This document shows, piece after piece, positions 9,037 through 63,767 of a DNA stretch of 64,000 bases. Origin of the DNA: a virus; the IMG/VR virus record IMGVR_UViG_3300027963_004416, positions 81,708 to 145,707 of that record, one strand, 5' to 3'. The notes beneath the pieces were generated by a model. It did not search any database, was not told the DNA's origin, and worked only from the letters and a program-made list of their open reading frames with translations. The translations under genes and the position numbers were made by a program. Positions within the stretch are counted from its first letter, which is position 1; every line of letters begins with the position of its first letter.

Positions 9037-9044
9037 TATTTATG
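9037..9044 (-). promoter_or_regulatory. T4-type late promoter candidate (CATAAATA) for the leftward gp4-gp2 operon
   Basis: TATTTATG on the plus strand, 5 nt upstream of the gp4 ATG and overlapping the gp48-like start codon. Confidence 0.55.
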
Positions 9045-10256: not shown

Positions 10257-11128
10257 TTAATTTATTCGATAAATTTCCTAAAGTATCTTATGGCAATAAT
10301 ATTGCAATTAATATACTTACTTCAATAAAATTTAATGATATTGCAAAGAGAAATAATTTTGTCTTCTATCCCTACGTAGTTCAAGAAGGGGAGAGAGCAG
10401 ATATAATATCTGCAAATTATTACGATGATGCAAAATATTCTTGGGTAATATATGCCGCCAATGATATTATAGATCCCTTTTATGATTGGCCGTTAAGTGA
10501 GAATGATTTTAAAACGTTTATTATTAAGAAGTATAGTTCTGCACAAGCAGCTATAGAAAAAATAGTATACTATACAACAAATTGGGAAGATGATGATAGC
10601 ATGCTATCTACGTCAGCATATCAAGCACTACCTGCAAGTCTAAAAAAATACTGGCAACCAATTGCAGGTATCAACAACAATATAGTTTCCTATGAAAGAA
10701 AACCGCTTTCATTAATTAAAGAAACTAACAAAACGATTTATATTAATGTTGGTAATTCTAGTATTTTTAAATTAGAAGATAAAATACTTCAATCAAACAG
10801 TACTTTAATAAGCACCGGCTTCGTCAAGAGTATCTCAGGTAATACAATATCGGTTCAACATATAGAAGGTTTATTTAATTCAACGTCAAATGTATCTCTT
10901 TTCACAGACATAAACTCTAATACATCTGTTAGTGAGGTGATTAATTACATTGAAGATAGCTCTGGTAATTATATTAATTTAAATATACCAGATAACGAGC
11001 TTGTTTACTGGAAACAAGTTAGTGCATATGATAGTGAAATAGAATTTAATAACTCAAAAAAAACTATTAAACTGCTTGATAAAGTATACCTTGATCAAGT
11101 AGAAAAAGAACTTAAAGAGCTGCTGTAA
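10253..11128 (+). CDS. gp53: Baseplate wedge protein gp53
   Basis: FDKFPKVSY...YVVQEGERADIISANYYDD...WVI..AN.IIDPFYDWPLS...KKY...SAYD.E...N..K..IKLL. Confidence 0.9.
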   Translation: MINLFDKFPKVSYGNNIAINILTSIKFNDIAKRNNFVFYPYVVQEGERADIISANYYDDAKYSWVIYAANDIIDPFYDWPLSENDFKTFIIKKYSSAQAAIEKIVYYTTNWEDDDSMLSTSAYQALPASLKKYWQPIAGINNNIVSYERKPLSLIKETNKTIYINVGNSSIFKLEDKILQSNSTLISTGFVKSISGNTISVQHIEGLFNSTSNVSLFTDINSNTSVSEVINYIEDSSGNYINLNIPDNELVYWKQVSAYDSEIEFNNSKKTIKLLDKVYLDQVEKELKELL

Positions 11129-13375: not shown

Positions 13376-13804
13376 ATGGCGTTAGTTAAACAGACTAATA
13401 GAACAAAAAGCACAGTAGTACAAGAAGTAAAGTATTCAGATTTTACTAATAATATTCAGTCATTTTATGGTTCTAATGACGTAGCTCTAATTAAAAATGA
13501 AGATGCAGTTTCAAACTCTATTAGAAACTTACTTCTTCTTAATAGAGGAGAAAGATTCTTTGCTCCCGAAATAGGAAGCAATATTAAAGCCCTTTTATTT
13601 GAAAACATTACACCTATCACAACAAGCGCGCTTAAAAGTTACATTATTGAAACTATAGATAATTTTGAACCTAGAGCAAAATTAATAGATGTAATAGTAG
13701 ATGCTTCACCAGATGAAAACTCCTACTCAGTTACTGTGTATTTTTCTACCATAAATAAAACTGAACCTACAGTTATTGAACTATTACTTAACAGGATAAG
13801 GTAA
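13376..13804 (+). CDS. gp25: Baseplate wedge/sheath initiator gp25
   Basis: YSDF...NEDAV..SIRNL....GERFF.P..GS.I..LLFE...I.NFEPR. Confidence 0.93.
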   Translation: MALVKQTNRTKSTVVQEVKYSDFTNNIQSFYGSNDVALIKNEDAVSNSIRNLLLLNRGERFFAPEIGSNIKALLFENITPITTSALKSYIIETIDNFEPRAKLIDVIVDASPDENSYSVTVYFSTINKTEPTVIELLLNRIR

Positions 13805-15591
13805 TGGCAAACACTAGTATTAACCTAGTGTCTTTAGATTTTGAAAAAATCAAAGACAACTTAAAACAATACCTTCAGAGAAGTGATTCTCCGTTCAAGG
13901 ACTATCTGTACGAAGGTTCAAACATTTCACAGCTTGTAGATCTACTTGCGTATAATGCATATCTACAATCCTTTTATACCAATATGGTTGCTTCTGAAAT
14001 GTTCCTTGACTCGGCTCAACTAAGGGATAGCGTTGTCTCGCATGCTAAAGAGCTAGCTTATGTGCCCAGATCTTTTAGATCTGCTGTAGCCGAAATATCT
14101 TTTGTTGTAACACCAACTATCACTTTAGGTGCTCTCCTTATACCAAAGGGTACTACTTTTACATCAAAAGTAGGTAGTAATACTTTTTCTTTTGCTACAG
14201 AAGAAAATATAGTTGTACCTGCCAATACTGATGGGAAGTTTTATTCAAATATTAGCATTTACGAAGGTATTTACACATCAGACTCATTTGTAGTGGATAA
14301 TTCTAATACGGCTCAAAGATTTGTTTTATCAAATCCTACCATTGATACTAGAAGTATCACAGTGTCAGTAGCGGAGAATAATGGAGCTAATATTTATTCT
14401 TGCACTAGAGCGGCCTCTTTTCTAGGGCTAAGTTCAAATTCTGAAGTTTATTTTTTACAAGCAGCGGAAAACTCTCAATATGAGATTCTGTTCGGTGATA
14501 ATATTATTAGTAAAAGGCCTTCTACCGGGGCTATAGTTATAGTTGAATATAGGGTCAGTAATGGTCAGCTACCTAATGGTGCCTCATCATTTACTATCGA
14601 CGGACCTATACAAGGACAGTCAAATACAAGTGATATAAAGACTGTAGCTGAAGCTGTAGGAGGAGATGTTAATGAGAGCATTGAATCGATTAAGCTTAAT
14701 GCTCCTAGATACTACCAAAATCAAGAAAGAGCTGTTACAGCTTCAGATTATGAAAGTCTTTTAAAGACTAATTTTCCTGAAGTAACAGCTGTGTCTGCGT
14801 TTGGAGGTGAGGAAGCAATAGTACCTCAATACGGTAAAGTGTACGTGGCCGTAGACCTAGAAGGATATAACGGTATCCCTGATTCAATGAAAAAAAGATA
14901 CTATGACTTTTTAAAGCAGCGTTCGCCCCTCAGCATAGATCCTATAATTATACAACCTAAATTTTTAAAAATTGAGTGCTATACAAGAGTAAGATATAAC
15001 ATAAACAAAACTTCCCTTAAGTCAAGTGATATTAGGAGTATTGTTACTTCAGCTATTAGCAGTTATAATAAAAATTATCTATCCGGGTTCAAGAAGACAC
15101 TTAGATTTAGTAGATTAGTTAGTGATATTGATAACTCTCACTCAAGTATTATTAGTAATGATACCTATTTAAGAACCTTTCTAGATTTTTCACCTGACCC
15201 GGTAATTGAAGAGAATTTTACTTTGGAATTTGATATTCCGCTCAGTACATTTAATAATATGACATCAGAACACTTAAGTGCGGAATATTATTCAATTACT
15301 TCATCTCCATTCACCTATAAAAATAAAGAATGCTTCCTAGAAGATGATGCTGAGGGTACTTTGCGTATTGTAGTAAATGTTAATGGGGCCCATGAAGTAG
15401 TAAAGAATGTAGGTACTGTAGATTATAAAAATGGCATCGTCAATATAGTTAATTTTAATGCATCATACCTAGGTAGTAGTATTCGAGTTTATGCAGATAC
15501 CACTACCAGAGACATCACATCTAATAAAAATACAATTATCTTAATAGATGATGCTGATATACAAGTCGTAGTAGAACAGGTTAAAGAATAA
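13804..15591 (+). CDS. gp6: Baseplate wedge subunit gp6
   Basis: LDFEKIK.NLK.YL...DY.YEGSN...LVDLLAYN...EMFLDSAQLRDSVVSHAK.L.Y.P.S; ESIESIK.NAP..Y..Q.RAVT..DY; P.YGKVY; G.VDY..G. Confidence 0.95.
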   Translation: MANTSINLVSLDFEKIKDNLKQYLQRSDSPFKDYLYEGSNISQLVDLLAYNAYLQSFYTNMVASEMFLDSAQLRDSVVSHAKELAYVPRSFRSAVAEISFVVTPTITLGALLIPKGTTFTSKVGSNTFSFATEENIVVPANTDGKFYSNISIYEGIYTSDSFVVDNSNTAQRFVLSNPTIDTRSITVSVAENNGANIYSCTRAASFLGLSSNSEVYFLQAAENSQYEILFGDNIISKRPSTGAIVIVEYRVSNGQLPNGASSFTIDGPIQGQSNTSDIKTVAEAVGGDVNESIESIKLNAPRYYQNQERAVTASDYESLLKTNFPEVTAVSAFGGEEAIVPQYGKVYVAVDLEGYNGIPDSMKKRYYDFLKQRSPLSIDPIIIQPKFLKIECYTRVRYNINKTSLKSSDIRSIVTSAISSYNKNYLSGFKKTLRFSRLVSDIDNSHSSIISNDTYLRTFLDFSPDPVIEENFTLEFDIPLSTFNNMTSEHLSAEYYSITSSPFTYKNKECFLEDDAEGTLRIVVNVNGAHEVVKNVGTVDYKNGIVNIVNFNASYLGSSIRVYADTTTRDITSNKNTIILIDDADIQVVVEQVKE

Positions 15592-18500
15592 TGAGAGATA
15601 TTGAAAACTCTATTAGCAACTTTGTAGAGCTGCAGTTTCCTGAATTTTACAGAGAGGAAGGTCCGCTTTTCGTATTATTTGCTAAAGAATACTTTACGTT
15701 TCTTGAAACCTGTTATACATATGCCGAGTTAGAAGTTGACACAGGATTTAATATAGGAGATACAGTATCTCAAGGCGGGGCTACAGGCTCAATCGAAGCT
15801 AAGAGTGGTAAATTTATTTTAATAAGAAATACAAGCTCGGAAGGATTTAAGTGTAAGTTAAAGTGTCAAGAATTAATTTATATTTTAAGTTCTTCAGGTA
15901 GCCAAACATATATTGAATCTCTCTCCTCACCTAGCGTTTACTATCACTCAAGAAATCTTTTTGACTATAGAGATATTGATAAAACCGCTGATTATTTTTT
16001 AGTTTACTTTAAGGAAAAATATCTTAAAGGTATACAGTTTAATACTAATACTAGTAAAAGAAATCTTATAAAAGCAGCCTTCGACCTATTCAGAGCAAAA
16101 GGCACTGAGCGCTCTATAGACCTATTATTTAAATTAGTATTTGGAACCAAAGCGGAAGTATATTATCCGGGAGATGATATCCTGCGGCCCTCTGGCGGCA
16201 AGTGGAAGCTACCTGTATATCTTGAAGTATCCCGCAGTTCACGCACAACAAGCTATACAGGTAAACTTATCTCAGGATCTAAGTCTGGAGCTGAAGGGTT
16301 TGTAGAATCAATAATTACTAGAAATGTCAAAGGTAAATTAATTGACATTCTATACCTTAGCAATGCTAAAGGACCCTTTGTAGCAGGTGATATTATTACT
16401 GAGAATGGAATAATAGAAAATGCGCCAGTTCACCTAGGGTCTTTAAATTCTATTACTATTACTCAAGGCGGTAGCTTATTCGTAGTTGGTGAGATAGTCA
16501 ATATAGTAAGCGCTAGCGGTATATCTGGTAAAGCAATAGTTAATTCTATTTCTTCTGAGACAGGAATAGTGAGGTTTACTTTAGTAGATGGAGGGTGGGG
16601 ATATAGTGTTAATGCCACCTCTATCGTGTCAACGAAAGTTCTAGAATATTCTAATTACTATAATAGTAATACCTCTGTAACTGCATTTACCGACCATGAA
16701 ACTGTAGAGCAGAACCTGCATAGCTTAGGAATAACTGAGGTAGTAGGCCTATTGGAGGTTAAAGATTTTATTAATAATCCTAGCGGGGCAAATTCTGTTG
16801 TAGTACAGTCAGATCATGTGCTTAACTCCAATAGCGCAACTATAATTGTTAATACTCTAGCAAATAATATTTTAGCAAATGGTAATCTTAAAATACCTAA
16901 AAAGCAACTTTTAGTTGTTAATACTAGTATTTTTTACCCGGTTGGTTCAGTCGTAAATCAATCTAATGGCACCTCGCTACTTACAAAAGCAGTAGTAAAT
17001 GCAGTATCTAATGTAGCCGTACTTACTATAAATGCCACTCCTGTTATATCAGGAGTAGGTTTTCATATAGGTCAATTTATTACCCAGAACGGGACGGGAG
17101 CCAACGGCATCGTCGTTGCTGTACCATATACAAGCTATTACGGGTTTACAAATGTTACTCATGTCGTATTAAGAGGGGTAGGCGGTACATTTAATAATAC
17201 CGGGACATTAAACGTTTATCCGAGCGCAGCTAATCTTACTTTAGTATCTACTGCTACTCCAAATACCGCTCAACTTGGCTATCAAATACTACTTAATGAT
17301 AGCTCAGTACTCCCATCAGGTAATATACAATGGTTTGCAAATAATCTTATTTCTAATGCAACTATAGGAAATAGTACAATTATAGTATCATCGGATGTTG
17401 GTGGTATAATTTCGACAAATACATCTGTAACTGCGACTGGTAATGTAATTGGATCTAACTCAGGATACTTAGGAATTACTTCAGTTAACAATGCGTTTTA
17501 TTCTGTTAATGGTAACATTATAGTAGGTCGTCAAAGTAATTCAGTAGCAACTATTACTCTTGTTTCAAGCGGATCTGGGGCTAATGTTAGAGTAGGCTCT
17601 ATTACTGATACTGAGTCGGTAAGACTAGCACAGGATTTAATATCTTCTAATAATGTACTTAACGTGCCTTTTTATAATATGATTATTAATGGAGCAAACT
17701 CAGGATATGGATATTTAAGCGGTGTGCTTATTTTATACTCAGGCAGCTCATATTCAAATGCGGATGTAGTTACTTTTACTGGAGGAACCTATTCAGGATT
17801 TAGAGCAGGTAATGCTAGTATAGTAACTAATAGCAGCGGCGGTATTACTTCTGTAGTATTAGCTTCTAATGTTGGTAGTGGGTATAGCTCTTCACCTTCA
17901 GCTAACGTGGCTACTTCTACAGGCTCCGGAGCCATACTTTATCCATTATTCCCGCTAGGGTTTGTTAAAACTCCGGCTGGAGATCTTATAAATGATACTT
18001 TATTAAATATTTTTAGATTTCAAGATTATACTATTGGTAGTATTGCAACTTTAGCCGGTATCAACCCTGGTGAGAATTATAATTTGGCTCCCTTTATAAG
18101 AATAACGGAACCTGCAGTAGCGAGTCTCGGCAAAGAAGATGTTGTATTAAATGTTACTAATGTTAATAAATCATTTATAGTCGGTGAAAATATTAGACAG
18201 AGTGTAGTATTGTCCGGCAATACTATAACATCTAACAATCTAGTAGGCAACTCAAGTTATGCAAACGGTGAATTAGTTTATAGCACTAATGGTATCAGGC
18301 GTATAGCAGAAGGCACTATTGATACTATAACATCCTCCACTCCTAATTCTGTTATAAATGTATTGAACGTTATTGGTCAATTTAGCAATACAGTTACAGC
18401 TAGCAAGCTCACAGTAAGCTCCAACTCGTTGTTTAGTCCCGGTGATTTAATAAGACAAGGCACCGGAGGATCTCAGGCAAACGGTATATTAGTAACTTCT

Positions 18501-30262: not shown

Positions 30263-30270
30263 TATAAATA
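30263..30270 (+). promoter_or_regulatory. T4-type late promoter TATAAATA
   Basis: Exact consensus in the intergenic gap about 35 nt before ATG 30305; gp33 is encoded in the window. Confidence 0.8.
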
Positions 30271-37106: not shown

Positions 37107-37120
37107 ATTTGCGAGGCCAC

Positions 37121-41311
<4,191 letters not shown>

Positions 41312-41337: not shown

Positions 41338-41703
41338 ATGGCAATCAAAATTAATGGTACCACTATTGTTGATGATAGTCAAAACGGTACTCTTACTGGT
41401 AATTTAACTATATCAACAAGTACATCTGGTACTGTATCTGTTGGTAATTCTACAGTTAATACAACCGCTAATGCTACAATTTTAGCTATTAACGGCACAG
41501 GTGCACAAGTAAGACTTGGTAACACCACAGTTAATACCTATGTAAATGCAACTACAATTGCTGTGACGTCAGTACTTGCTAATGGCTCTATAGGTACATC
41601 AGGTCAGCTACTTACCTCAAACGGTAGCGGTATCTATTGGTCGACATCTGCCGGTGGAACAGATGATACTGCTAGAACATTAGCTACTTTAGCATTACCA
41701 TAA
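41338..41703 (+). CDS. Short fibre/adaptor protein
   Basis: MAIKINGTTIVDDS N-terminus; shares GNSTVNT.ANAT.LAINGTGAQ.RLGN and ANGS.GT.GQ.LTSNG.G.YWST modules with the fibres; GAGGAG RBS. Confidence 0.75.
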   Translation: MAIKINGTTIVDDSQNGTLTGNLTISTSTSGTVSVGNSTVNTTANATILAINGTGAQVRLGNTTVNTYVNATTIAVTSVLANGSIGTSGQLLTSNGSGIYWSTSAGGTDDTARTLATLALP

Positions 41704-41704: not shown

Positions 41705-43084
41705 ATGATCGGTGTAGAGACTCTAGTGGGCTGTGTTAATACAGCAATTCAATCGGTAGCAAATACCGATGAGTTAGGCATACTTCAACTTTCAAGCATT
41801 GTCAAGGACTTTGATTCTAATACCGTATACGCGGTTGCTAACGTAGCTTCACTGCCGTCAGCTGCCTGTAATAAAGGGAGAATGATTTTTATTACGGACA
41901 GGTGCGCTTATCGTATTAGTGATGGTACAAGATGGATAAACGATTTTACTAGTAATACCGTGACAAACGCTTTATATGCCTGGGGCACCAGTCTTTGCGG
42001 CGCACTAGGTGACGGTACAACCGTATCTAAATCATCTCCGGTTTCAGTTGTTGGTGGGTTTACAGATTGGTGTCAGGTCTGCACCGGTCAATCCCATACT
42101 ACAGGGCTTAGAACTAACGGAACTATATGGGCATGGGGGACAGGCTCAGTGGGTGAGTTAGGTGACGGGACAACAGTATCTAAATCATCACCAGTATCAG
42201 TTGTTGGTGGTTTTACAGATTGGTGCCAGATTAGTGCTAGCAGTTGTTCTAGTATAGGAATAAGAACTACTGGCTCACTATGGTCATGGGGGTCAAACGC
42301 CCAAGGTCAATTAGGTGACGGTACTACTGTTAATAGATCATCACCAGTATCAGTCGTAGGCGGATTTACAGATTGGTGTCGAATTAGCACTGGCGCTGTC
42401 CATGGCTTAGGTATTAGAACCAACGGCACAGCATGGGCCTGGGGATTCAATTTATATGGCCGTCTAGGAGACGGAACAACAGTATCTAAATCATCACCAG
42501 TATCAGTCGTGGGAGGGTTTACCGACTGGTGTCAGATTAGCGCAGGTCTTGCACATGGTCTAGGTGTCAGAACCAATGGTACAGCATGGGCGTGGGGACA
42601 AAATTGTAGAGCAGTAGTAGGTGCTACAGGTGCACTAGGCGACGGAACAACCGTAAATAAATCATCCCCAGTATCAGTAGTAGGGGGGTTTACAGATTGG
42701 TGTCAAGTTAGTGCAGGTACGTATCACAGCTTAGGAGTTAGAACCAATGGGACAGCATGGGCATGGGGACATAATTGTTGTGGTCGTTTAGGTGATGGAA
42801 CAACAGTAACAAAGTCATCACCAATATCGGTGATTGGGGGATTTACAGATTGGTGTCAGATTAGCGCAGGTCAATTTCATTCCGCAGGAGTAAGAACCAA
42901 TGGAACAGCTTGGGGATGGGGTTGTGCTTGTAACGGTCGTTTAGGTGATGGAACAACAGTTGACAAATCATCTCCAGTTTCTGTTCTCGGAGGAATAATA
43001 AACTGGTGTCAGGTTAGCGCCGGTACAGGTACAAACGGTACAAGCTTTGGAATAGTCTTAGGTAAAGGATTTGCAGCCATATGA
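41705..43084 (+). CDS. RCC1/BLIP-II-like 7-bladed beta-propeller protein 1
   Basis: Seven ~51-aa repeats WAWG....G.LGDGTTV.KSSPVSVVGGFTDWCQ.SAG..HSLG.RTNGT after an ~85-aa N-terminal domain. Confidence 0.92.
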   Translation: MIGVETLVGCVNTAIQSVANTDELGILQLSSIVKDFDSNTVYAVANVASLPSAACNKGRMIFITDRCAYRISDGTRWINDFTSNTVTNALYAWGTSLCGALGDGTTVSKSSPVSVVGGFTDWCQVCTGQSHTTGLRTNGTIWAWGTGSVGELGDGTTVSKSSPVSVVGGFTDWCQISASSCSSIGIRTTGSLWSWGSNAQGQLGDGTTVNRSSPVSVVGGFTDWCRISTGAVHGLGIRTNGTAWAWGFNLYGRLGDGTTVSKSSPVSVVGGFTDWCQISAGLAHGLGVRTNGTAWAWGQNCRAVVGATGALGDGTTVNKSSPVSVVGGFTDWCQVSAGTYHSLGVRTNGTAWAWGHNCCGRLGDGTTVTKSSPISVIGGFTDWCQISAGQFHSAGVRTNGTAWGWGCACNGRLGDGTTVDKSSPVSVLGGIINWCQVSAGTGTNGTSFGIVLGKGFAAI

Positions 43085-44433
43085 ACGTATCTAACCTTAT
43101 CCTCCAGCTCAAATCTAAGCTATCAAGTTGCACTATAGATCAGCAAATGATTTCTAAGGCTATCATATTACTGCAATTAGGCAGAGTTGAATCCGTTTCT
43201 ACCTATGCTAGTCTACCATCTGCATCAGCTAATCAAGGTCAGCTTTACTACGTATATTACGACGGTCTATATTGGTCTAATGGTTCTAGCTGGGCAAGGA
43301 TCGCAAGATCTACGTTAGATCAATCATGGGCATGGGGGTTTAATAATTGTGGTCAACTAGGTGATGGTACAGTCAACAACAAATCATCACCAGTATTAGT
43401 AGTTGGCGGGTTTATAGATTGGTGTCAAGTTAGTGCTGGGTGCTATCAAACCTTAGGTGTTAGAACCAATGGTACTGCTTGGGCCTGGGGATGTAACAGT
43501 TATGGCCGTTTAGGTGACGGTACAATCGTAAATAAGTGCTCGCCAGTATCAGTCGTTGGTGGTTTTACTGATTGGTGTCAGGTTAGTGCAGGTAACAGAC
43601 ACAGCTTAGGTGTTAGAACCAATGGAACAGCCTGGGCATGGGGACGTGCTAGTAGTGGTCTTTTAGGTGACGGTACAACGGTTGATAAATCATCACCAGT
43701 ATCAGTAGTAGGAGGTTTCACTAATTGGTGTCAAGTTAGTGCAGGCCAGGGCCATAGCTTAGGTATTAGAACCAATGGTACATTGTGGTCCTGGGGATGT
43801 AACAGTTACGGCCAACTAGGTGACGGTACAACCGTATCTAAATCATCACCGGTATCAGTCATTGGCGGGTTTACAGATTGGTGCCAGGTTAGTGCAGGCC
43901 ATGGCCATAGCTTAGGTGTTAGAACCAATGGAACAGCCTGGGCATGGGGAAGTAATTGTAGATTAATAGTAGGTGCTACAGGTGCACTAGGCGACGGAAC
44001 AACTGTAAACAAATCATCACCAGTATCAGTTGTTGGAGGTTTCACTAATTGGTGCCAGGTCAGTGCTGGGTACATTCACAGCCTAGGTGTTAGAACCAAT
44101 GGCACTGCATGGGCTTGGGGTATTGGATCCAGCGGGCGACTAGGTGACGGTACTATTGTAAACAAATCATCACCAGTATCGGTCGTAGGCGGCTTTACAG
44201 ATTGGTGTCTGGCAGATGCGGGCCAAGTCGAAAGTGCCGGCATTAGAACTAATGGGACAGTCTGGACATGGGGATGTAATGGTAGTGGTTTTACAGGATT
44301 CATTGGAACTTTAGGTGACGGTACATCCGTTTGTAGATCATCACCAGTATCAGTCCTAGGCGGCTTTACAGATTGGTGGCAAGTTAGCGCAGGTCAATGT
44401 AATTTTCTAGCTATAAGAAGACCATCAACATGA
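43081..44433 (+). CDS. RCC1/BLIP-II-like 7-bladed beta-propeller protein 2
   Basis: Seven RCC1-like repeats; N-terminal STYASLPSA...G.L motif. Confidence 0.92.
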   Translation: MNVSNLILQLKSKLSSCTIDQQMISKAIILLQLGRVESVSTYASLPSASANQGQLYYVYYDGLYWSNGSSWARIARSTLDQSWAWGFNNCGQLGDGTVNNKSSPVLVVGGFIDWCQVSAGCYQTLGVRTNGTAWAWGCNSYGRLGDGTIVNKCSPVSVVGGFTDWCQVSAGNRHSLGVRTNGTAWAWGRASSGLLGDGTTVDKSSPVSVVGGFTNWCQVSAGQGHSLGIRTNGTLWSWGCNSYGQLGDGTTVSKSSPVSVIGGFTDWCQVSAGHGHSLGVRTNGTAWAWGSNCRLIVGATGALGDGTTVNKSSPVSVVGGFTNWCQVSAGYIHSLGVRTNGTAWAWGIGSSGRLGDGTIVNKSSPVSVVGGFTDWCLADAGQVESAGIRTNGTVWTWGCNGSGFTGFIGTLGDGTSVCRSSPVSVLGGFTDWWQVSAGQCNFLAIRRPST

Positions 44434-45776
44434 ACATAGCTCAATTTCAAATACTTCTACAAGAATCGATTGATAATGCTACTACTACTTTGGACTATTT
44501 GTTCTTAGCTAAAGCCGTTCAAGCGCTTGGAATGGGACAGATACGTAAAGTTAGCACTTATTCAAGCTTACCTTCTGCATCGACTAATAAAGGTTTATTG
44601 GTATTTGTTACAGCAGACCAGAGATTATATTCGAGCACTGGTACTGATTGGCAAAGCATAGTTTCGTTAACTAAAGGAATAACATACAGCTGGGGAAGTG
44701 CTTGTTGTGGTCTTTTAGGTGACGGGACAACAGTATCTAAATCATCTCCCGTTTCTGTCATAGGCGGGTTTACAGATTGGCGCCAGATTAGTGCAGGATG
44801 TTTCCATAGCTTGGGGTTACGTACTAATGGGACTGTATGGGCATGGGGTTTCGGGTGTAATGTATTAGGTGATGGAAGCACAATTGTAACATGTAAATCA
44901 TCTCCCGTTTCTGTCATAGGCGGATTTACAGATTGGTGCCAGGTTAGTGCTGGGGGTAATCACAGCCTAGGTGTTAGAACCAATGGTACAGCATGGGCAT
45001 GGGGGTCAAACGCCCAAGGTCAATTAGGTACCGGAACTGTTGGTACACCTGCCTGCGCTTCACCAGTATCAGTCATAGGTGGGTTTACAGATTGGTGTCA
45101 AGTTAGTGCTGCAGGATCTACCCATAGCTTAGGTGTTAGAACCAACGGTACAGCATGGGCCTGGGGAAGTAATTGTTGTGGTCGTTTAGGTGACGGTACT
45201 ACAGTAGCTAAATCATCACCAGTATCGGTCATAGGCGGGTTTACAGATTGGTGCCAGATTAGTGCTAGTGCAGGAGGTTATCACAGCCTAGGTGTTAGAA
45301 CCAATGGTACATTATGGGTGTGGGGGAGTAACTCTAGCGGCAAATTAGGTGATGGTACAACCGTAAATAAATCATCTCCAGTTTCAGTTGTTGGTGGTTT
45401 TACTGATTGGTGCCAGGTTAGTGCAGGAAATGATCATAGCTTAGGTGTTAGAATTAATGGGACAGCATGGTCATGGGGGACTAATAAAAATGGTCAACTA
45501 GGAGACGGTACAACCGTAGATAAATCATCCCCCGTATCAATAGTAGGTGGGTTTACTAATTGGTGCCAAGTTAGTGCTGGGGGTAATCACAGCCTAGGTG
45601 TTAGAACCAATGGTACATTGTGGTCCTGGGGATTTAATAATGCTGGTCAACTAGGAGATGGAACAACTGTATGCAAATCATCACCAGTATCGGTCATAGG
45701 CGGGGTTACAGATTGGTGTCAAGTCAGCACCGGTTCTGGCTGCGGTGTTTCAGCTATTAGAGGATCAAGCTTCTAA
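44430..45776 (+). CDS. RCC1/BLIP-II-like 7-bladed beta-propeller protein 3
   Basis: Seven RCC1-like repeats; N-terminal STYSSLPSA..NKG motif. Confidence 0.92.
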   Translation: MNIAQFQILLQESIDNATTTLDYLFLAKAVQALGMGQIRKVSTYSSLPSASTNKGLLVFVTADQRLYSSTGTDWQSIVSLTKGITYSWGSACCGLLGDGTTVSKSSPVSVIGGFTDWRQISAGCFHSLGLRTNGTVWAWGFGCNVLGDGSTIVTCKSSPVSVIGGFTDWCQVSAGGNHSLGVRTNGTAWAWGSNAQGQLGTGTVGTPACASPVSVIGGFTDWCQVSAAGSTHSLGVRTNGTAWAWGSNCCGRLGDGTTVAKSSPVSVIGGFTDWCQISASAGGYHSLGVRTNGTLWVWGSNSSGKLGDGTTVNKSSPVSVVGGFTDWCQVSAGNDHSLGVRINGTAWSWGTNKNGQLGDGTTVDKSSPVSIVGGFTNWCQVSAGGNHSLGVRTNGTLWSWGFNNAGQLGDGTTVCKSSPVSVIGGVTDWCQVSTGSGCGVSAIRGSSF

Positions 45777-45794
45777 TAAATAGGAGAAATAAAA

Positions 45795-46424
45795 ATGTAT
45801 GCAGTAGTTTATAAAAATAGAGTAATAGTAGGGCCTATGGACTGGAATAGTGGGATTTTTAAAGGCTCACTAGAAAAGGAAGGGGTAGATATTCAGCTTT
45901 CAAAACTTCCCCCAGAACAACTCCCTCTTATAATTAATAATGATGCAAAGATTACCTTAGTAGAGGAAGTTAGACCAGAAATCGACCCTATGGTCGAGTA
46001 CTATTACGGACCTCTCTGGAACGTATCTGGGGATGTAACGATCGCTAACTATGAAGTGATGGATTCACCAGTAGATGCGGCTAAAATTAATTACATTAAC
46101 TTAGCCGCTGCTGAGCGCTGGAAAAAAGAAGTAGCTGGCGTTAAACTAAATATAGGTAGCAAGGAAGTTACATTAGATACAACACGCGGCGGTCGCGCTA
46201 TTTATTCACATCAACTATCAGTAATGAGCAATGGTGATACAGTGAATTGGAAGTTTACTGAAGGCTGGTTAAGTCTTACAAAAAGCGACATGTCATCAGT
46301 AGTAGCAGCAGTATCAGCACATGTGCAATCTACTTTTGACTGGGAAAAAAACATCAATGATCAAATTGATGCCGCTAATACTAAGCAAGAACTTCAGGCT
46401 TTAGAAATAATTGAGCAATCATAG
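45795..46424 (+). CDS. DUF4376-like tail-associated protein (possible fibre assembly chaperone)
   Basis: AAERWKKEVAG...DT.R......VNWKF.EGW..LT...V.AHVQ..FDWE; AGGAG RBS, preceded by AATAAATA. Confidence 0.7.
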   Translation: MYAVVYKNRVIVGPMDWNSGIFKGSLEKEGVDIQLSKLPPEQLPLIINNDAKITLVEEVRPEIDPMVEYYYGPLWNVSGDVTIANYEVMDSPVDAAKINYINLAAAERWKKEVAGVKLNIGSKEVTLDTTRGGRAIYSHQLSVMSNGDTVNWKFTEGWLSLTKSDMSSVVAAVSAHVQSTFDWEKNINDQIDAANTKQELQALEIIEQS

Positions 46425-46442
46425 GAATAGTAGAATAATAAA

Positions 46443-47804
46443 ATGCCAGTAGATAAAACAACACTTCAAAGCAAGCTTACAGCAGCACTAGGCAATACTA
46501 CTAACACTACTGTGCCTAGTGAAGTACTTGGTCTAATTTTATCTGCAAAGGCTGTTGACACTCAAAGTATATCAGTAGTTTCAACTAGTGCGTCCTTGCC
46601 TGATCTAGGACTCTATAATTCTCCAGATTCAGTCCTTACTTTTATTAATGATACTGGTATTTTTGCTATTAGTTCTAATACAAAATGGATATCATTAGAT
46701 GGACGTCTAATAAGAGATGACTATAACTATGGTAATACATATAGCTGGGGATCAAGCAGTGGTGGGAAACTAGGTGACGGAACAACCGTTGCTAAATCAT
46801 CTCCTGTTTCAGTTGTTGGTGGTTTTTCAGATTGGTGTCAGGTTAGTGCAGGAAGTGATCATAGCTTAGGTGTTAGAACTAACGGTACTGCATGGGCATG
46901 GGGCTGTGGCGACATCGGCCGTTTAGGCGACGGAACAACAGTAAATAAATCATCACCAGTGTCAGTTGTAGGTGGGTTTACAGATTGGTTTCAAGTTAGT
47001 GCTGGCTGCTGTCACAGCCTAGGTGTCAGAACTAACGGTACAGCATGGGCGTGGGGGACGAGCCTTTCCGGTCAACTAGGAGATGGAACAACCGTATCTA
47101 AATCATCACCAGTATCAGTTGTTGGCGGATTTACAGATTGGTGTCAGGTTAGTGCATCACCGCTGAGCCATAGCCTAGGTGTCAGAACTAACGGTACAGC
47201 ATGGGCATGGGGAAGTAGCAGTGAAGGCCGTTTAGGTGACGGTACAACCGTATCTAAATCATCACCAGTGTCAGTTGTAGGTGGGTTTACTGATTGGTGT
47301 CAGGTTAGTGCAGGTCTTAGATTCAGCCTAGGTGTTAGAACCAATGGTACAGCATGGGTGTGGGGATCAGGCAGTAATGGTAAATTAGGCGACGGAACAA
47401 CCGTGGATAAATCATCACCAGTATCGGTCATAGGCGGGTTTACAGATTGGTGTCAGGTTAGTGCTGGTAGCTATCACAGCTTAGGTGTTAGAACTAACGG
47501 TACAGCATGGGCGTGGGGATGTAATGCTGCTGGTCAATTAGGGGATGGTACAGCCGTAAATAAATCATCACCAGTGTCAGTTGTAGGTGGGTTTACAGAT
47601 TGGTGTCAAGTTAGCGCGGGTTTTGAACACAGCCTAGGTGTTAGAACTAATGGTACAGCATGGGCGTGGGGCTGTGGCGCCTTCGGCCGTTTAGGCGACG
47701 GAACAACCGTAAACAAATCATCACCAGTATCAGTACCAGGCGGTTTTACTGATTGGTACCGGGTTAGTACAGGTCAATATCACAGCCTAGGATTAAAATA
47801 TTAA
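46443..47804 (+). CDS. RCC1/BLIP-II-like 7-bladed beta-propeller protein 4
   Basis: Seven RCC1-like repeats at about 153-nt spacing; N-terminal SLPDL...W..LD.R..R.DY motif. Confidence 0.92.
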   Translation: MPVDKTTLQSKLTAALGNTTNTTVPSEVLGLILSAKAVDTQSISVVSTSASLPDLGLYNSPDSVLTFINDTGIFAISSNTKWISLDGRLIRDDYNYGNTYSWGSSSGGKLGDGTTVAKSSPVSVVGGFSDWCQVSAGSDHSLGVRTNGTAWAWGCGDIGRLGDGTTVNKSSPVSVVGGFTDWFQVSAGCCHSLGVRTNGTAWAWGTSLSGQLGDGTTVSKSSPVSVVGGFTDWCQVSASPLSHSLGVRTNGTAWAWGSSSEGRLGDGTTVSKSSPVSVVGGFTDWCQVSAGLRFSLGVRTNGTAWVWGSGSNGKLGDGTTVDKSSPVSVIGGFTDWCQVSAGSYHSLGVRTNGTAWAWGCNAAGQLGDGTAVNKSSPVSVVGGFTDWCQVSAGFEHSLGVRTNGTAWAWGCGAFGRLGDGTTVNKSSPVSVPGGFTDWYRVSTGQYHSLGLKY

Positions 47805-49147
47805 TGATTACCTCTCAAAATCTTATAGACAAAATTTGTTGCGCTATCAACGCAGGCGGTCTAACAGCACTTCAGACATGTCAGACCACCAATGCGCTCA
47901 CTATACTAAGTAATCCAGTTTGCAGCGTGGCAAACTTTGCATCTTTACCTTCTGCCACTTGCTATAATGGTAGAATGATTTTTGTGACTAATGATAATAG
48001 ATATTATCATGCTGTAGACGGTGCCTGGAATTGTAATTTTTCATCAAGATGCGAGGTAAGAGGAGGTATCTGGGGCGCCGGGCAAGACTCACAAGGCATT
48101 CTAGGGGATAATACTACAACACCAACATCATCGCCAGTATCGGCTATTGGCGGGATTACTGATTGGTGTTTAGTAAGTGCAGGCTCAACAACATCTACGG
48201 GTCTTAGATTTAACGGTACAGCATGGGCGTGGGGAACAGGATACAGCGGGCGACTAGGTGACGGCACTACTGTCACTAAATCATCACCAGTACCAGTTGT
48301 TGGAGGTTTGCTGTGGTGCAAGGTTAGTACGACTTTTCATACTATCGCTATTAGAAATAATGGTACATTGTGGGCCTGGGGACAAAACATTTACGGCCGT
48401 TTAGGTGACGGTACAACTGTAAGCAAATCATCCCCCGTATCAGTCGTTGGTGGTTTTACTGATTGGTGTCAAGTTAGTGCAGGTACGAATCATAGCTTAG
48501 GTGTTAGAGCCAATGGTACTGCTTGGGCCTGGGGATATAACAGTTACGGCCGTTTAGGTGACGGTACTACTGTAAACAAATCATCACCAGTATCAGTAGT
48601 AGGAGGTTTCACTAATTGGTGTCAGGTTAGCGGCAGCGCTAGCGGCGGTCACAGCCTAGGTGTCAGAACTAACGGTACAGCATGGGCCTGGGGATGTAAT
48701 TATTTTAGTCAATTAGGTGACGGAACAGCCGTTGCTAAATCATCTCCTGTTTCAGTTATTGGTGGTTTTACAGATTGGTGTCAAGTTAGTGCAGGCCAGG
48801 GCCATAGCTTAGGTATTAGAACCAATGGCACTGCATGGGCTTGGGGGCGTAACAATCAGGGACAATTAGGTGAAGGTGGTTATACTAGCAGGTCGTCACC
48901 AGTATCAGTTGTAGGCGGTTTTACAGATTGGTGTCAGGTCAGTGCCGGGTACTTTCACAGTGCAGGTGTTAGAACCAATGGTACAGCATGGGCGTGGGGA
49001 TTAAATACTTGCGGACGATTAGGAGATGGTACAACAGATAAAAAACCATCACCAGTATCAATAATAGGGGGCTTTACCAGTTGGATTCTCGTTTGCGCTT
49101 CAGGCTGTGATACTATAGGTATTACAGGATCTATTAAAGGTTGCTAA
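47804..49147 (+). CDS. RCC1/BLIP-II-like 7-bladed beta-propeller protein 5
   Basis: Seven RCC1-like repeats; N-terminal VANFASLPSA...GRMIFVT, closest to protein 1. Confidence 0.92.
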   Translation: MITSQNLIDKICCAINAGGLTALQTCQTTNALTILSNPVCSVANFASLPSATCYNGRMIFVTNDNRYYHAVDGAWNCNFSSRCEVRGGIWGAGQDSQGILGDNTTTPTSSPVSAIGGITDWCLVSAGSTTSTGLRFNGTAWAWGTGYSGRLGDGTTVTKSSPVPVVGGLLWCKVSTTFHTIAIRNNGTLWAWGQNIYGRLGDGTTVSKSSPVSVVGGFTDWCQVSAGTNHSLGVRANGTAWAWGYNSYGRLGDGTTVNKSSPVSVVGGFTNWCQVSGSASGGHSLGVRTNGTAWAWGCNYFSQLGDGTAVAKSSPVSVIGGFTDWCQVSAGQGHSLGIRTNGTAWAWGRNNQGQLGEGGYTSRSSPVSVVGGFTDWCQVSAGYFHSAGVRTNGTAWAWGLNTCGRLGDGTTDKKPSPVSIIGGFTSWILVCASGCDTIGITGSIKGC

Positions 49148-50476
49148 ATGGCTCTACAAGACGACGTAAATAATTTTACTAATGCATGCTCTACAGCTTG
49201 TTTATTAACACTAGCTGCATCTGTATACACAAACACAACAAACAGATCAGTAACTGTTGCAAACGTAAATAGCTTGCCTGATTTATCTAGTAATACTATA
49301 ATACCAGGAACAGTATTCTTCGTTAACAGTATAGGTGTACCAGTTATTGCGCAATTAGGGTGTTGGACCGGTCTAGATAACAGAGTATTAAGAAGGGACT
49401 ATGATTATACATATGCTTGGGGACAAAACGCGTTCGGTCAATTGGGCGACGGTACATCAGTAACTAAATCATCACCTGTATCTGTCGTCAATGGTTTTTT
49501 AGACTGGTGTCAGGTTAGTGCTGGAGGTTGTCAAAGCTCAGGTATTAGATCCAACGGTACAGCCTGGGCGTGGGGATTAAATAATTGTGGCCAACTAGGT
49601 GACGGAACAACCGTAGATAAATCATCACCAGTATCAGTCATAGGTGGGTTTACTGATTGGTGCCAGGTTGACTCGGGTTGCGGTCATAGCCTTGGAGTTA
49701 GAACTAATGGTACTGCATGGGCTTGGGGATGTAACTTTTGGGGCTATCTAGGTGACGGAACAAGAGTAGATAAATCATCACCAGTGTCAGTTGTTGGAGG
49801 TTTCACTAATTGGTGCCAGGTCAGTGCTGGGTATTCTCACAGCCTAGGTGTTAGAACCAATGGGACAGCATGGGCGTGGGGTTTAAATTCCTCCGGCCAG
49901 TTAGGTGATGGTACAGCCGTATCTAAATCATCACCAGTATCAGTCATAGGTGGATTTACAGATTGGTGTCAGGTTAGCGCAGGCCGAGCTCGCAGCTTAG
50001 GTGTTAGAACCAACGGCACAGCCTGGGCGTGGGGATATAACAGCGGAGGATTAGGTGACGGTACAACATTAAACAAATCATCTCCAGTATCTGTCATAGG
50101 TGGCTTCACCGACTGGTGCCAGGTCAGTGCAAGCAGAGTTAGTTTGGGACTCCGTATAAATGGCACTGCATGGGCATGGGGGTGTAATAATTCTGGTCAA
50201 CTAGGTGATGGTACAACCGTAAATAAGTGCTCGCCAGTATCAGTCGTTGGTGGTTTTACTGATTGGTGTCAAGTTAGTACAGGTCTGGAGCACTGGGGTT
50301 TAGGTCTCAGGACAAACGGAACAGCTTGGTCTTGGGGGTGTAATAATTCTGGTCAACTAGGTGATGGTACAACCGTAAATAAGTGCTCGCCAGTATCTAT
50401 TATAAGCGGGACTACATCGTGGCGCAGTATTAGTGCTGGCGATTTTCATGGGCTAGGGATACGTACTTTAACGTAA
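49148..50476 (+). CDS. RCC1/BLIP-II-like 7-bladed beta-propeller protein 6
   Basis: Seven RCC1-like repeats; N-terminal SLPDL...W.GLDNR..RRDY, closest to protein 4. Confidence 0.92.
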   Translation: MALQDDVNNFTNACSTACLLTLAASVYTNTTNRSVTVANVNSLPDLSSNTIIPGTVFFVNSIGVPVIAQLGCWTGLDNRVLRRDYDYTYAWGQNAFGQLGDGTSVTKSSPVSVVNGFLDWCQVSAGGCQSSGIRSNGTAWAWGLNNCGQLGDGTTVDKSSPVSVIGGFTDWCQVDSGCGHSLGVRTNGTAWAWGCNFWGYLGDGTRVDKSSPVSVVGGFTNWCQVSAGYSHSLGVRTNGTAWAWGLNSSGQLGDGTAVSKSSPVSVIGGFTDWCQVSAGRARSLGVRTNGTAWAWGYNSGGLGDGTTLNKSSPVSVIGGFTDWCQVSASRVSLGLRINGTAWAWGCNNSGQLGDGTTVNKCSPVSVVGGFTDWCQVSTGLEHWGLGLRTNGTAWSWGCNNSGQLGDGTTVNKCSPVSIISGTTSWRSISAGDFHGLGIRTLT

Positions 50477-50496: not shown

Positions 50497-51045
50497 ATGA
50501 AAATTAATATTGGTTCAGGTGGTACTAAAATTGAAGGTTTTGTTACTTGTGATTACGATGCATTAGCAGAGCCAGATTATCTTTTTAATTTAGAAACAGA
50601 TAAGTTTCCTTTTGAGGATAATTCTGTTGAAGTAGTAGTAGCACATCATGTGTTCGAGCATTTAGGTGAAGGGTACTTTCACTGCTTGAAAGAGCTCTAT
50701 AGAATTTGCAAACACGGAGCATTAATTGATATAAGAGTGCCACATCACAGGCACGATTATTTCTACGATGATCCTACTCATAGAAGACCTATTACTGTGG
50801 GTGGGCTTCTGCTATTCAGTAAAAAGCACAATAAACTGTGCAAAGAACAACAAGCAGCTTCTAGCCGTCTAGGGGATTACTTTAATGTTGACTTTGAGAT
50901 AGTTGATTGGGATTACATGCCATCGCAACTTTACCGCAAGGAGTTCGAAGGTGAGCCAAGAGATAAGGTGGAAAAATATCTCAGAGAGCACAATAATATT
51001 ATAGAAGAACTATGGGTAAAGTTAGTGGTGGTGAAGGATGGCTGA
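50497..51045 (+). CDS. SAM-dependent methyltransferase (Methyltransf_11-like)
   Basis: KINIGSG....EGF...D, FPFEDNSV....HVFEHL...ELYRICK.GA.I.I.VPH...DDPTH. Confidence 0.85.
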   Translation: MKINIGSGGTKIEGFVTCDYDALAEPDYLFNLETDKFPFEDNSVEVVVAHHVFEHLGEGYFHCLKELYRICKHGALIDIRVPHHRHDYFYDDPTHRRPITVGGLLLFSKKHNKLCKEQQAASSRLGDYFNVDFEIVDWDYMPSQLYRKEFEGEPRDKVEKYLREHNNIIEELWVKLVVVKDG

Positions 51046-52396
51046 AGAAGTAATTGAGTTTACAATACAAGACTTAAAACCTGTTGTTATGGATCTTCTT
51101 TATCAGGAGAAGAGAAAAATTGTATTTGAAATGCTTGATATGTATTTTAAGCGAGCAGAATCGCTTCAAGACTTTGATACTCTAGGGTACCTTTCATTAA
51201 AGGCAGAATATCGAGATCTTTATCTTAAATGCGCTGAAGCGGCTTATATAAGAGCAGAATCACCAGAGCAGCTTTATATTGCAAGAGCCAATCTGTATAA
51301 GGCATACAATGCTATGAACATGCCAGACAAGGCATTGTTTTATGTTGATTTAAATCTTAAAGCAACACCTGACGACTTTGAAACACAAACCCAGATGGCA
51401 TTTAATGTTGCCCTCAAAGGCGACAAAATTACTTCAGAAAAAATACTTCTAGAGCTTATTAATAAGTATCCGGACCGAGCTGAAGATATGCGCAGTGCTT
51501 TATCTGGAAAACTTCTTCGCGAGGGGAAGACTGCTGAAGGTATTCTTTCTTTTCTAGGTACGTTTAAGCCTACAAGTGGCAAATTTGAAACTAACTTAAA
51601 AATGCGTCGCTGGACTGGATCTGCTTATCCAGGTAAAACAATATACGTAGAAGGAGAAGGTGGCATCGGTGACGAAATAATTAATATTAGATTTTTTAAT
51701 AATATTAAAAAATTAGGAATGAGACCTATACTATTTTCTTCCTGGTCAAAGTATCGTGAAGATACGGTTAATTTTTTTAGAAGAAATGGATTTGAAGTAA
51801 TAACCGAATCATACTCTATTGATAGAAAGCAACTCTGGGCTCCAATGATGAGTCTGCCTGCTTATCTAAATCTTGATGAGAATAGTTTATGGGAAGGTCC
51901 CTACTTAAAACCTTTAAATAAGCCTAAAAATAAGCTTAAGAGTAGTAAATTTAAAATAGGCATTAAATGCAGCGGTAATCCATATTTTAGCCAAGACGAA
52001 TATAGAAAAATACCTATTAAAAAAATGCTTGAGTACTTACCAAGCAATGCTGAAATTTATTATATTGATAAAGAACCAGTTAATTACGATAATGTTATAG
52101 ACCTATCCGGCAAAATTAATTCTTGGGAAGATACCCTAGATTTTATTAGCCAAATGGATTGTATTGTAAGCTCGTGTACTAGTCTAGTACATGCAGCTGG
52201 TGCTATCGGCAAGACTACTTTTGTGGCAGTTCCAATTGCTGAGTATTATATCTGGACTACTTCAAGTAAAACTACTAAATCGCCGTGGTATGGTGATAAT
52301 TTTCAAGTGCATAAGCAAACAAAAGTTGCATGTTGGAATGAACCGCTGTATAATATACAGCAAGAACTTTTTAAATTGATGAGTAAACATGACTGA
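51038..52396 (+). CDS. TPR-like helical domain fused to a GT-B (GT9-like) glycosyltransferase
   Basis: Helical N-terminal half; RW.G....GKTI.V.GEGGIGDEI...RF, PMMSLP, KIGI...GNP, SWEDT...I..MD.IVS.CTSLVHAAGAIGK...W......SPWY. Confidence 0.8.
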   Translation: MAEEVIEFTIQDLKPVVMDLLYQEKRKIVFEMLDMYFKRAESLQDFDTLGYLSLKAEYRDLYLKCAEAAYIRAESPEQLYIARANLYKAYNAMNMPDKALFYVDLNLKATPDDFETQTQMAFNVALKGDKITSEKILLELINKYPDRAEDMRSALSGKLLREGKTAEGILSFLGTFKPTSGKFETNLKMRRWTGSAYPGKTIYVEGEGGIGDEIINIRFFNNIKKLGMRPILFSSWSKYREDTVNFFRRNGFEVITESYSIDRKQLWAPMMSLPAYLNLDENSLWEGPYLKPLNKPKNKLKSSKFKIGIKCSGNPYFSQDEYRKIPIKKMLEYLPSNAEIYYIDKEPVNYDNVIDLSGKINSWEDTLDFISQMDCIVSSCTSLVHAAGAIGKTTFVAVPIAEYYIWTTSSKTTKSPWYGDNFQVHKQTKVACWNEPLYNIQQELFKLMSKHD

Positions 52397-53162
52397 AAAA
52401 ACATATCATTTTATTACCGGCCTTCCTCGCGCAGGGTCAACTCTACTAACATCTATCTTAAAACAGAATCCTAGATTCCATTCATCTATTACTGATTCGT
52501 TAGCTAATTTAGTTAAAGGAGTAATAGAGCACAGCCAGGATTCACCTGGCATGAAGTCAGAGGTGCCTATTAATAGAAGAAAAAATTTAGTAAGACATCT
52601 CTTTGAAGGTTTCTACGAAGAAGTAGATAGCCCGGTCATTTTTAATACAAACAGAGCTTGGACATATTTAACCGCGGTCACTCGTGATTTGTATCCAAAA
52701 TCACGCTATATTGTTTGTGTAAGGGATATTAACTGGGTTCTTGATAGCTTTGAATGTGCACACCGCCGCAACCCTTTTTCTATTAATACGGTTACCGGAG
52801 GACATTCAAACTCGGTGTATCAAAGAGTAGATACACTTATGACAGAAGACGGGGTAGTAGGCTTTCCTTATATTGGTATTAAGCAAGCCATTACCGGTCC
52901 TGAGCAATCGCTATTATTTTTACTTGAGTACGATCAGCTTTGTAAGAATCCTAAAGATACAATGAGAGCTCTTTATGCATTTTTAGGCGAGCAATATTAC
53001 GAGCATGACTTTAATAATGTTGAAGCATCTTGGGATGAGTATGATTCAGAGATCGGTATCAAGCTTCATGATGTGCGGAAGAAAGTAGAGTATAGAGAAA
53101 GAAAGTTTATTCTTCCTCCAGACGTTCTTAACAAGTATGCAGGCATGGAAGTCTGGAGATAA
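52389..53162 (+). CDS. Sulfotransferase family protein
   Basis: FITGLPRAGSTLL..IL.QNP (5'-PSB loop), I.CVRD...VL.S (3'-PB), L.EYD.L..NP...M..LY.FLG. Confidence 0.85.
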   Translation: MTEKTYHFITGLPRAGSTLLTSILKQNPRFHSSITDSLANLVKGVIEHSQDSPGMKSEVPINRRKNLVRHLFEGFYEEVDSPVIFNTNRAWTYLTAVTRDLYPKSRYIVCVRDINWVLDSFECAHRRNPFSINTVTGGHSNSVYQRVDTLMTEDGVVGFPYIGIKQAITGPEQSLLFLLEYDQLCKNPKDTMRALYAFLGEQYYEHDFNNVEASWDEYDSEIGIKLHDVRKKVEYRERKFILPPDVLNKYAGMEVWR

Positions 53163-63759: not shown

Positions 63760-63767
63760 TATAAATA
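63760..63767 (+). promoter_or_regulatory. T4-type late promoter TATAAATA for gp18
   Basis: Exact consensus in the gp17-gp18 intergenic region. Confidence 0.85.

Follow-up and report, generated by a model that had tools for sequence, protein, structure and literature searches.

A tandem array of six RCC1-like propeller genes with a conserved scaffold and fast-changing loops in an uncultured T4-like phage

The 64-kb window analysed here is the final part of a 145.7-kb IMG/VR record (IMGVR_UViG_3300027963_004416, 85% complete) from an uncultured T4-like phage, and encodes a T4-type baseplate and fibre module. Positions 41705-50476 of the window harbor six RCC1-like genes, all on the + strand, tightly packed with overlapping stop and start codons, and encoding 442 to 459 residues each. 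Each protein comprises a separate N-terminal domain of ~80-97 residues followed by a seven-bladed RCC1-like propeller. All six exceed the Pfam cut-offs for WD40_RLD (198-272 bits, cut-off 150) and RCC1 (147-187 bits, cut-off 21.7), and each contains seven SP[VI] anchors at a spacing of 49-57 residues, mostly 51. These anchors and the Pfam matches confirm the count made in an initial annotation of the region, six genes of seven blades or 42 units of about 51 residues. The interval given in that annotation also contains the N-terminal domains of these proteins and a gene for a DUF4376 protein. The latter divides the RCC1 row into 3+3, a position kept in every fetched related array that spans this point. 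The features of the array are as follows.

41705-43084, + strand: g1, RCC1 paralog, 459 residues; Pfam WD40_RLD 4.9e-58; seven anchors
41705-41968, + strand: N-terminal domain of g1, about residues 1-88; its positional orthologue is gene 1 of the related contigs L011, L013 and L027
43081-44433, + strand: g2, RCC1 paralog, 450 residues; start overlaps the g1 stop
44430-45776, + strand: g3, RCC1 paralog, 448 residues; start overlaps the g2 stop
45795-46424, + strand: DUF4376 protein, 209 residues; Pfam DUF4376 1.4e-12; phrog_10508 'tail fiber protein'
46443-47804, + strand: g4, RCC1 paralog, 453 residues; the protein that was modelled
47804-49147, + strand: g5, RCC1 paralog, 447 residues
49148-50476, + strand: g6, RCC1 paralog, 442 residues

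The entropy of each column was computed from an alignment of the 42 blades. Six columns are highly variable. The two residues following SAG reach 3.46 and 3.59 bits, positions 1, 3 and 4 after WG reach 2.91, 3.03 and 3.18 bits, and the x of TVxKSSP reaches 2.38 bits. The 45 other columns average 0.52 bits and 12 of them are invariant, in agreement with the near-invariant framework initially described. Both windows of variation that had been named, after WG and after SAG, are recovered, but at position 2 after WG conservation is partial (N/G, 1.29 bits) and two extra variable sites are found, at the x of TVxKSSP (2.38 bits) and at the residue preceding LGDG (1.59 bits). The loop insertions that had been quoted are real, and are located in blade 4 of g1 and blades 4 and 6 of g2. 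The same columns are hypervariable (3.3-3.8 bits) in 353 blades from 58 members of the wider family, with 279 distinct tetrapeptides and 157 distinct dipeptides at the variable sites. The family itself is large, with 7545 database proteins at E <=1e-10 among 8000 candidates tested.

Among paralogous blades, the scaffold shows proportions of non-silent (pN) and silent (pS) differences of 0.10 and 0.58, respectively, and is thus under strong purifying selection. At the variable columns, the classical ratio of non-silent to silent change (dN/dS) across the 42 paralogous blades is 0.42, with a pS of 0.73 and a pN of 0.59. Because both site classes are saturated, this ratio is uninformative for positive selection, and a comparison with a close relative was used instead. 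A value below 1 at saturated columns nonetheless favours a reading in which the loops are simply unconstrained and change by neutral drift and repeat instability, with no adaptive role. The residue composition of the variable sites speaks against such drift. Relative to mutational expectation, Ser, Gly, Asn and Cys are enriched 2-3x (Cys 3.1x), and Lys (0.08x), Pro (0.12x), His (0.17x) and Ile (0.23x) are depleted, so the sites are selected rather than free.

The close relative, L034, is a 6.4-kb contig from an NCBI metagenome-assembled genome. Silent (dS) and non-silent (dN) divergence between the window and this contig differ sharply from one part of the locus to another.

DUF4376 gene: dS 0.015, dN 0.002 (99.5% amino acid identity)
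N-terminal domains of the RCC1 proteins: dS 0.030, dN 0.014
Propeller scaffold: dS 0.41, dN 0.046
Variable columns: dS 0.87, dN 0.68

The initial annotation had called for loop alleles to be compared among relatives; the loops differ even here, where flanking dS is 0.015-0.03. The mismatch map rises from 0-2 to 5-26 mismatches per 51 nucleotides (nt) exactly at each propeller start, and the propeller silent sites are ~15-25x more diverged than the N-termini of the same genes (p 6e-41). This excess points to tract replacement rather than accumulated point mutation. The propeller of g4 has no blade-level orthology to L034, yet its N-terminus has a dS of 0.05, and those of g5 and g6 are mosaics of near-identical and diverged blades. 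A register shift by unequal crossing-over was considered and rejected, as the matches of g5 and g6 are diagonal and g4 has no near-identical shifted match to any L034 blade. Only 1 of 29 diverged 60-nt windows has a near-identical paralog in either genome, and other phages are the probable source of many diverged tracts. Between close relatives, propellers have been replaced whole or in long tracts.

Six blades with a scaffold pS <=0.10 relative to L034 were taken as the unrecombined set. In these blades silent change amounts to 3/200 (0.015) and non-silent change in the scaffold to 0.017, whereas non-silent change at the variable sites reaches 18.5/78 (0.238). The resulting dN/dS (omega) at the variable sites is ~16 (Fisher p 1.5e-8); taken relative to silent change in the flanks, it is ~10 (p 2.8e-9). 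The loop codons therefore turn over ~10-16x faster than silent sites at low divergence, which, together with their composition, makes neutral change a very improbable account of the loops. Further close relatives were sought through the DUF4376 gene, with one distant locus from a metagenome scan, none from a viral scan, and one 99% cluster from a protein search. The related contigs L026, L027 and L029 were uninformative, two N-terminal single-nucleotide polymorphisms being their only differences.

The six genes are old. Their N-terminal domains are 32-67% identical between positional orthologues across genomes and ~25% identical between paralogs, and this orthology by position indicates that the six genes predate these phages. 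The blades behave differently, with a scaffold pS of 0.60-0.62 between blades of one genome compared to 0.74 between genomes, and positional-orthologue blades are no closer than non-orthologous ones (pS 0.743 in both cases). Several states are specific to a genome and extend over its whole array: a Gly in 35/36 blades of the window is an Asn in 29/36 blades of L011, an Arg codon is AGA in 33/36 blades of the window and CGN in 31/36 of L013, and a Pro codon is CCA in 27 blades of the window and CCT in 24 of L011. Blades that are alike within a genome, and codon states that mark entire arrays, indicate concerted evolution. Exact runs of >=30 nt are shared by 36 blade pairs of the window (0.7 expected) and runs of >=40 nt by 11 pairs (0.035 expected). 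The two longest exact repeats both include variable codons.

43724-43778 = 48774-48828, + strand: exchanged segment of 55 nt; g2 blade 3 = g5 blade 5, including the hypervariable QG codons
50177-50241 = 50333-50397, + strand: exact repeat of 65 nt internal to g6, including hypervariable codons

Exchange can also be followed among nearly identical populations. The same 9.5-kb array of one related phage was recovered from at least six samples at 99.4-99.96% identity, and the differences consist of a few dense patches and isolated changes. A patch of 70 nt in gene 3 matches a gene 6 blade at 100% identity, and is a gene conversion with a visible donor. The isolated non-silent changes all lie in the six variable columns (4/4) and none in the scaffold, again contrary to what drift would produce. 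Blade-segment exchange within the array thus keeps the scaffold uniform in each genome and moves loops between blades.

As all the arrays are from metagenome assemblies, the 153-nt repeats of mixed populations might in principle have yielded chimeric contigs. In favour of this, one gene of the related contig L017 has six blades and matches off register. The recovery of one array from several samples, with every open reading frame (ORF) intact and exact repeats of no more than 65 nt, argues otherwise, as does the presence of the same module in the cultured phage S-SRM01. Moreover, single-codon differences inside otherwise identical 150-nt blades cannot come from mis-joining, and an assembly artefact is the least probable of the explanations that we considered. 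The L017 gene (gene 5, 14710-15837 of IMGVR_UViG_3300008113_004172, 375 residues, with an off-register match of 96%) is either a natural blade deletion through unequal exchange or an assembly error.

The loop changes themselves are mostly whole-codon replacements, such as TGT TTC to ATT AGC, TTT to CAG, or CAA to GTC, in blades otherwise identical over ~150 nt. In blade 1 of g3 the differences from L034 are confined to hypervariable codons. Of the changed variable codons, 8/11 differ at two or more bases, with ~2 expected (p 1.6e-4), and relative to L034 adjacent loop codons change jointly, mostly by transversions. No donor for the replaced loop codons was found in the window array, L034 or the other loci compared. 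Diversification by a diversity-generating retroelement (DGR) was rejected on two grounds, the absence of a reverse transcriptase and codon patterns of another kind. There is no RVT_1 match in the 145.7-kb record (85% complete), no template repeat was found (best blade-to-blade identity <=86%), and the variable codons use all third bases and show mixed transversions instead of an adenine-only pattern. Whole-codon changes fit a loop-targeted replacement without reverse transcriptase, and equally well an exchange of very short patches with a large pool of blades spread over the population. That the loop codons are renewed by a dedicated and so far undescribed process, beyond selection on ordinary point mutations, is a tentative and rather doubtful proposal. 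Under either process, the array would parallel, in a phage, repeat-based variable receptors like the HNWD proteins of fungi or the variable lymphocyte receptors of lampreys. The unexplained replacements point to a diversification process worth seeking.

We modelled g4 with AlphaFold2 from a 58-row alignment and assigned its strands with DSSP. The model has a mean predicted local distance difference test (pLDDT) score of 84.6 overall and above 90 in the propeller, with four strands per repeat. A Foldseek search with this model retrieved UVR8, HERC2 and RCC1 at a probability of 1.00 and template modelling (TM) scores of 0.80-0.90 normalised by target. Among solved structures UVR8 comes closest (phmmer E 1e-36, Foldseek TM 0.85 normalised by target). 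The model shows a seven-bladed RCC1-like propeller fold. The SAG-xx-H pair makes up the A-B turn, and the C-D loop starts with the WG-xNxx residues and ends with the x of TVxKSSP. Because of the β-meander topology, the A-B turn and the C-D loop are on one face. The invariant RTNGT (B-C) and GGFTDW (D-A) loops are on the opposite, constant face. In the alignment with UVR8, the residues after SAG correspond to W233/W285/W337 and R234/R286/R338, position 1 after WG to W94/W198/W250/W302, position 3 to D96/E43, position 4 to D44, and the x of TVxKSSP to D107. These UVR8 residues are documented dimer-interface residues (PMC5091643, PMC7455749). The expectation that the variable sites would map to one face is thus borne out by columns in the A-B turn and C-D loop that match the UVR8 interface and are neither scattered nor buried. 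Each propeller is therefore predicted to harbor a single variable face of ~40 hypervariable residues. Judged by strand direction, the chain passes from the N-terminal domain into the first strand C on the constant face, and it terminates there as well, behind a strand B. With both termini on this side, the topology suggests that the variable face points away from the anchor. For the N-terminus itself, the ESM Atlas gave weak leads (PTL_trimer, DUF2793 and T4_gp9_10_N; scores 0.77-0.80, TM 0.40-0.48) that we did not use as evidence, and a predicted complex of three copies of g4 residues 1-105 scored 0.00, the partner fold being uncertain.

The array is embedded in the fibre and baseplate module, which includes gp6-, gp7- and gp8-like wedge proteins, giant structural proteins, and two collagen-like fibres with S74 chaperone ends. 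One of the latter lies just upstream of the array. The neighbouring features are as follows.

30263-30270, + strand: T4 late-promoter-like TATAAATA, 35 nt upstream of a 710-residue fibre gene
37109-41311, + strand: 1400-residue collagen-like tail fibre with a C-terminal S74 chaperone domain; Collagen 8.7e-31, Peptidase_S74 2.1e-13; tail-fibre PHROGs
50497-53162, + strand: methyltransferase, protein with TPR and glycosyltransferase-like regions (TPR-GT), and sulfotransferase

The fibre gene downstream of TATAAATA at 30263-30270 opens the + strand run that leads to the RCC1 array. This motif occurs twice in the 64 kb (30263-30270 and 63760-63767) where 13 copies are expected, and all of 100 shuffles had at least two copies; its strong avoidance in the window suggests a late-promoter function in this phage. 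Directly upstream of g1, an ORF of 121 residues (41338-41703) has an Asn/Thr-rich motif and a 'GTSGQLLTSNGSGIYW' end as in the 1400-residue fibre; it lacks the S74 chaperone domain, has no Pfam or PHROG match, and contains 11 N-x-S/T sequons where 4 are expected.

The order fibre, three RCC1 genes, DUF4376, three RCC1 genes, methyltransferase, TPR-GT and sulfotransferase is common to four lineages (L011, L020, L027 and L030), and the last three genes are always downstream of the array in the fetched relatives. The cultured freshwater cyanomyovirus S-SRM01, a Synechococcus phage, has the same module (gp334-345) directly after its baseplate wedge and long-tail-fibre genes. No additional RCC1 array copy was found elsewhere in the 145.7-kb record, and a megablast of the array against phage genomes gave zero matches. 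Other related contigs have at least nine RCC1 genes in a row (L012) or fused ORFs of 14 or 20 blades. Two ORFs in a 202-kb relative (L028, IMGVR_UViG_3300046318_000439), at 1888-5754 (1288 residues, 20 blade matches) and 8945-11395 (816 residues, 14 blade matches), look like fused multi-propeller proteins. The number of blades per propeller is fixed at seven, and fused forms are multiples of seven.

Related propellers occur in fibre-like proteins and, as remote homologues, in virions. Two metagenomic proteins, P0014 and P0098, join an N-terminal 'FPDNPTPGQQY..G..W.Y.G..W' motif and a collagen Gly-X-Y stretch of ~90 residues to the same seven-bladed propeller, and from this architecture are putative fibres with a propeller head. 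Their N-terminal motif resembles the 'LP..G..FV..Y.S.G..W' segment of the RCC1 N-terminal domains in the window. A structure search also found RCC1-like propellers in T7-type tail-fibre proteins. The tandem RCC1-like proteins W70_237-239 of coliphage W70 and gp1 of GAP32 were identified as virion proteins by mass spectrometry (PMC11370258, PMC5259590).

We propose that the six genes encode modular late proteins, each made of a paralog-specific N-terminal anchor and a propeller, and that the propellers would act as virion-borne, host-surface binding heads of the baseplate or fibre apparatus. The proteins would sit on the virion with their variable face outward and bind host envelope structures, phage-host conflict driving the diversification, and the six distinct, positionally conserved anchors would correspond to six distinct docking sites. 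This proposal follows from the late-operon position between the fibre genes and gp13, the synteny conserved as far as S-SRM01, the collagen-stalk fusions, the propeller matches in T7-type tail fibres and the remote homologues in virions. Fast-evolving, outward-facing host-binding heads on six paralog-specific anchors are probably the best explanation of the data overall, virion display and binding being what we infer from these comparisons.

Several observations weigh against this proposal. The W70 and GAP32 precedents are only remote homologues (phrog_4219, E 3e-23), and the RCC1-like genes of W70 are far from its tail genes. The model of the N-terminal domain is weak (pLDDT 45-78), and a Pfam scan of the six N-terminal domains up to E = 10 gave nothing credible and no known anchor family. 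The assignment to one face is derived from strand topology and the UVR8 alignment and not from measured coordinates, and all sequences at the key step, the comparison with L034, are metagenome assemblies. The clues to the host are mixed: the gp6 baseplate homologue (13804-15591) is nearest to Caulobacter phage Cr30 (40%), a Sinorhizobium T4-like phage (38%) and cyanophage S-SSM7 (37%), and psbA, looked for as a host clue, is absent from the record, whereas the RCC1 module is shared with cyanophage S-SRM01. Finally, the Cys content is uncommon for extracellular proteins. Cys makes up 2.2-4.0% of the six RCC1 proteins, with ~10% at their exposed variable sites, whereas the other structural proteins have 0-0.5%. 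The RCC1 proteins also contain ~5% Trp, and each blade has one conserved Cys in strand A (DWCQV).

A high content of free Cys would suit the cytoplasm, where the propellers might act as intracellular binders, inhibiting or decoying variable host proteins (for example, factors of defence or envelope stress) much as BLIP-II blocks β-lactamase. Propellers of the RCC1, UVR8 and BLIP-II type are protein-binding platforms, and an omega well above 1 on one face fits any arms race. It is difficult to reconcile intracellular binders with genes whose stop and start codons overlap inside the late operon for fibres and baseplate, with collagen-stalk and T7-fibre-N fusions that bear the same propeller, or with remote homologues present in virions (PMC11370258), and six positionally conserved anchors would have no obvious use in the cell. 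We consider an intracellular role unlikely.

The tailoring operon that always follows the array raises another alternative, that the propellers mainly carry a phage-made glycan or sulfate decoration and that loop variation alters the modification pattern. The modifying enzymes would be those encoded nearby, by the methyltransferase, TPR-GT, sulfotransferase, GT2 and heptose genes. Ser, Asn and Cys abound at the variable sites, the RCC1 proteins have N-x-S/T sequons at ~2x expectation, and an N-G-T sequon is present in the constant B-C loop of every blade (N 35/36, G 36/36, T 35/36). This conserved sequon, however, is on the constant and not on the variable face, and the collagen-like fibres, with 80 sequons where 47 are expected, would be equally good or better substrates. 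Decoration as the main role appears slightly less likely again than intracellular binding, although it is compatible with the host-binding heads that we favour.

In three PHROG families (phrog_7220, phrog_16766 and phrog_4219), RCC1-like proteins of phages are labelled 'regulator of chromosome condensation' and assigned to the category 'DNA, RNA and nucleotide metabolism'. Gene context and published virion proteomics suggest that this category is wrong for the phage proteins, and the label describes their fold only. Phage host-recognition diversity has two main known routes, mosaic recombination, as in T-even gp38, and mutagenesis by retroelements, as in DGRs. The array would represent a third design, a multigene and multi-blade propeller repertoire in which exchange unifies the scaffold and ~6 residues per blade turn over an order of magnitude faster than silent sites. 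The family is found in T4-like phages of aquatic habitats, one of them a cultured cyanophage, and may therefore do much to set host range in lakes. A frozen scaffold with mapped variable positions would also provide a ready-made natural library of binders.

The array propellers share their fold and repeat family with UVR8, RCC1, HERC and BLIP-II, but their blades are 70-90% identical to each other compared to ~20-30% in cellular RCC1-like proteins. Since the positions of the UVR8 Trp/Arg chromophore are variable in the array, neither photoreception nor guanine nucleotide exchange factor (GEF) activity is implied, and the Ran-GEF or chromatin function of RCC1 proper is not expected in a phage of bacteria. 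Closer in setting are the RCC1-like 'DNA condensation' proteins of rV5-like and Rak2-like coliphages (W70_237-239, GAP32 gp1, 121Q and PBECO4), which are multi-copy tandem genes of large myoviruses, some of them detected in virions (PMC11370258, PMC5259590). The window proteins match the same PHROG, phrog_4219. The homology is remote, and the coliphage paralogs are diverse overall, without the frozen scaffold and defined variable columns of the array. The 'DNA condensation' function given in those two reports is an annotation carry-over.

Targets of DGRs, such as Mtd of Bordetella phage BPP-1 and the tentaclins (PMC10743442), are similar in that a phage tail protein pairs an unchanging scaffold with a small number of massively variable binding-face residues. 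Unlike them, the array has no reverse transcriptase, template repeat or adenine-only pattern, and is a functional analogue rather than a relative. The T-even adhesin gp38 is likewise a host-recognition protein of T4-type phages with a conserved framework around hypervariable loops; its hypervariable segments reportedly lie between conserved glycine-rich motifs, and motif recombination is said to swap specificity. It has an unrelated fold and is a single gene product at the tip of the long fibre, whereas the array comprises six genes and 42 blades. No homology was detected between gp38 and the array proteins, and the resemblance is in working only.

The closest mechanistic analogue of the array is the HNWD family of Podospora anserina (het-d, het-e and others). 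Its highly similar WD40 repeats undergo concerted evolution within and between ~10 paralogs and are reshuffled, with positive diversifying selection acting at a handful of sites in each repeat that lie on the interaction surface (Paoletti, Saupe and Clave 2007, PMC1805685; PMC2873952). HNWD proteins are eukaryotic intracellular non-self receptors of the NLR type, with a WD40 fold and a variable number of repeats, whereas the array lies in a phage late operon and has an RCC1 fold with seven blades. Repeat-induced point mutation (RIP), being specific to fungi, cannot apply to the phage array. The array nonetheless follows the same logic, concerted evolution combined with positive selection at a few positions (pN 0.238 versus pS 0.015).

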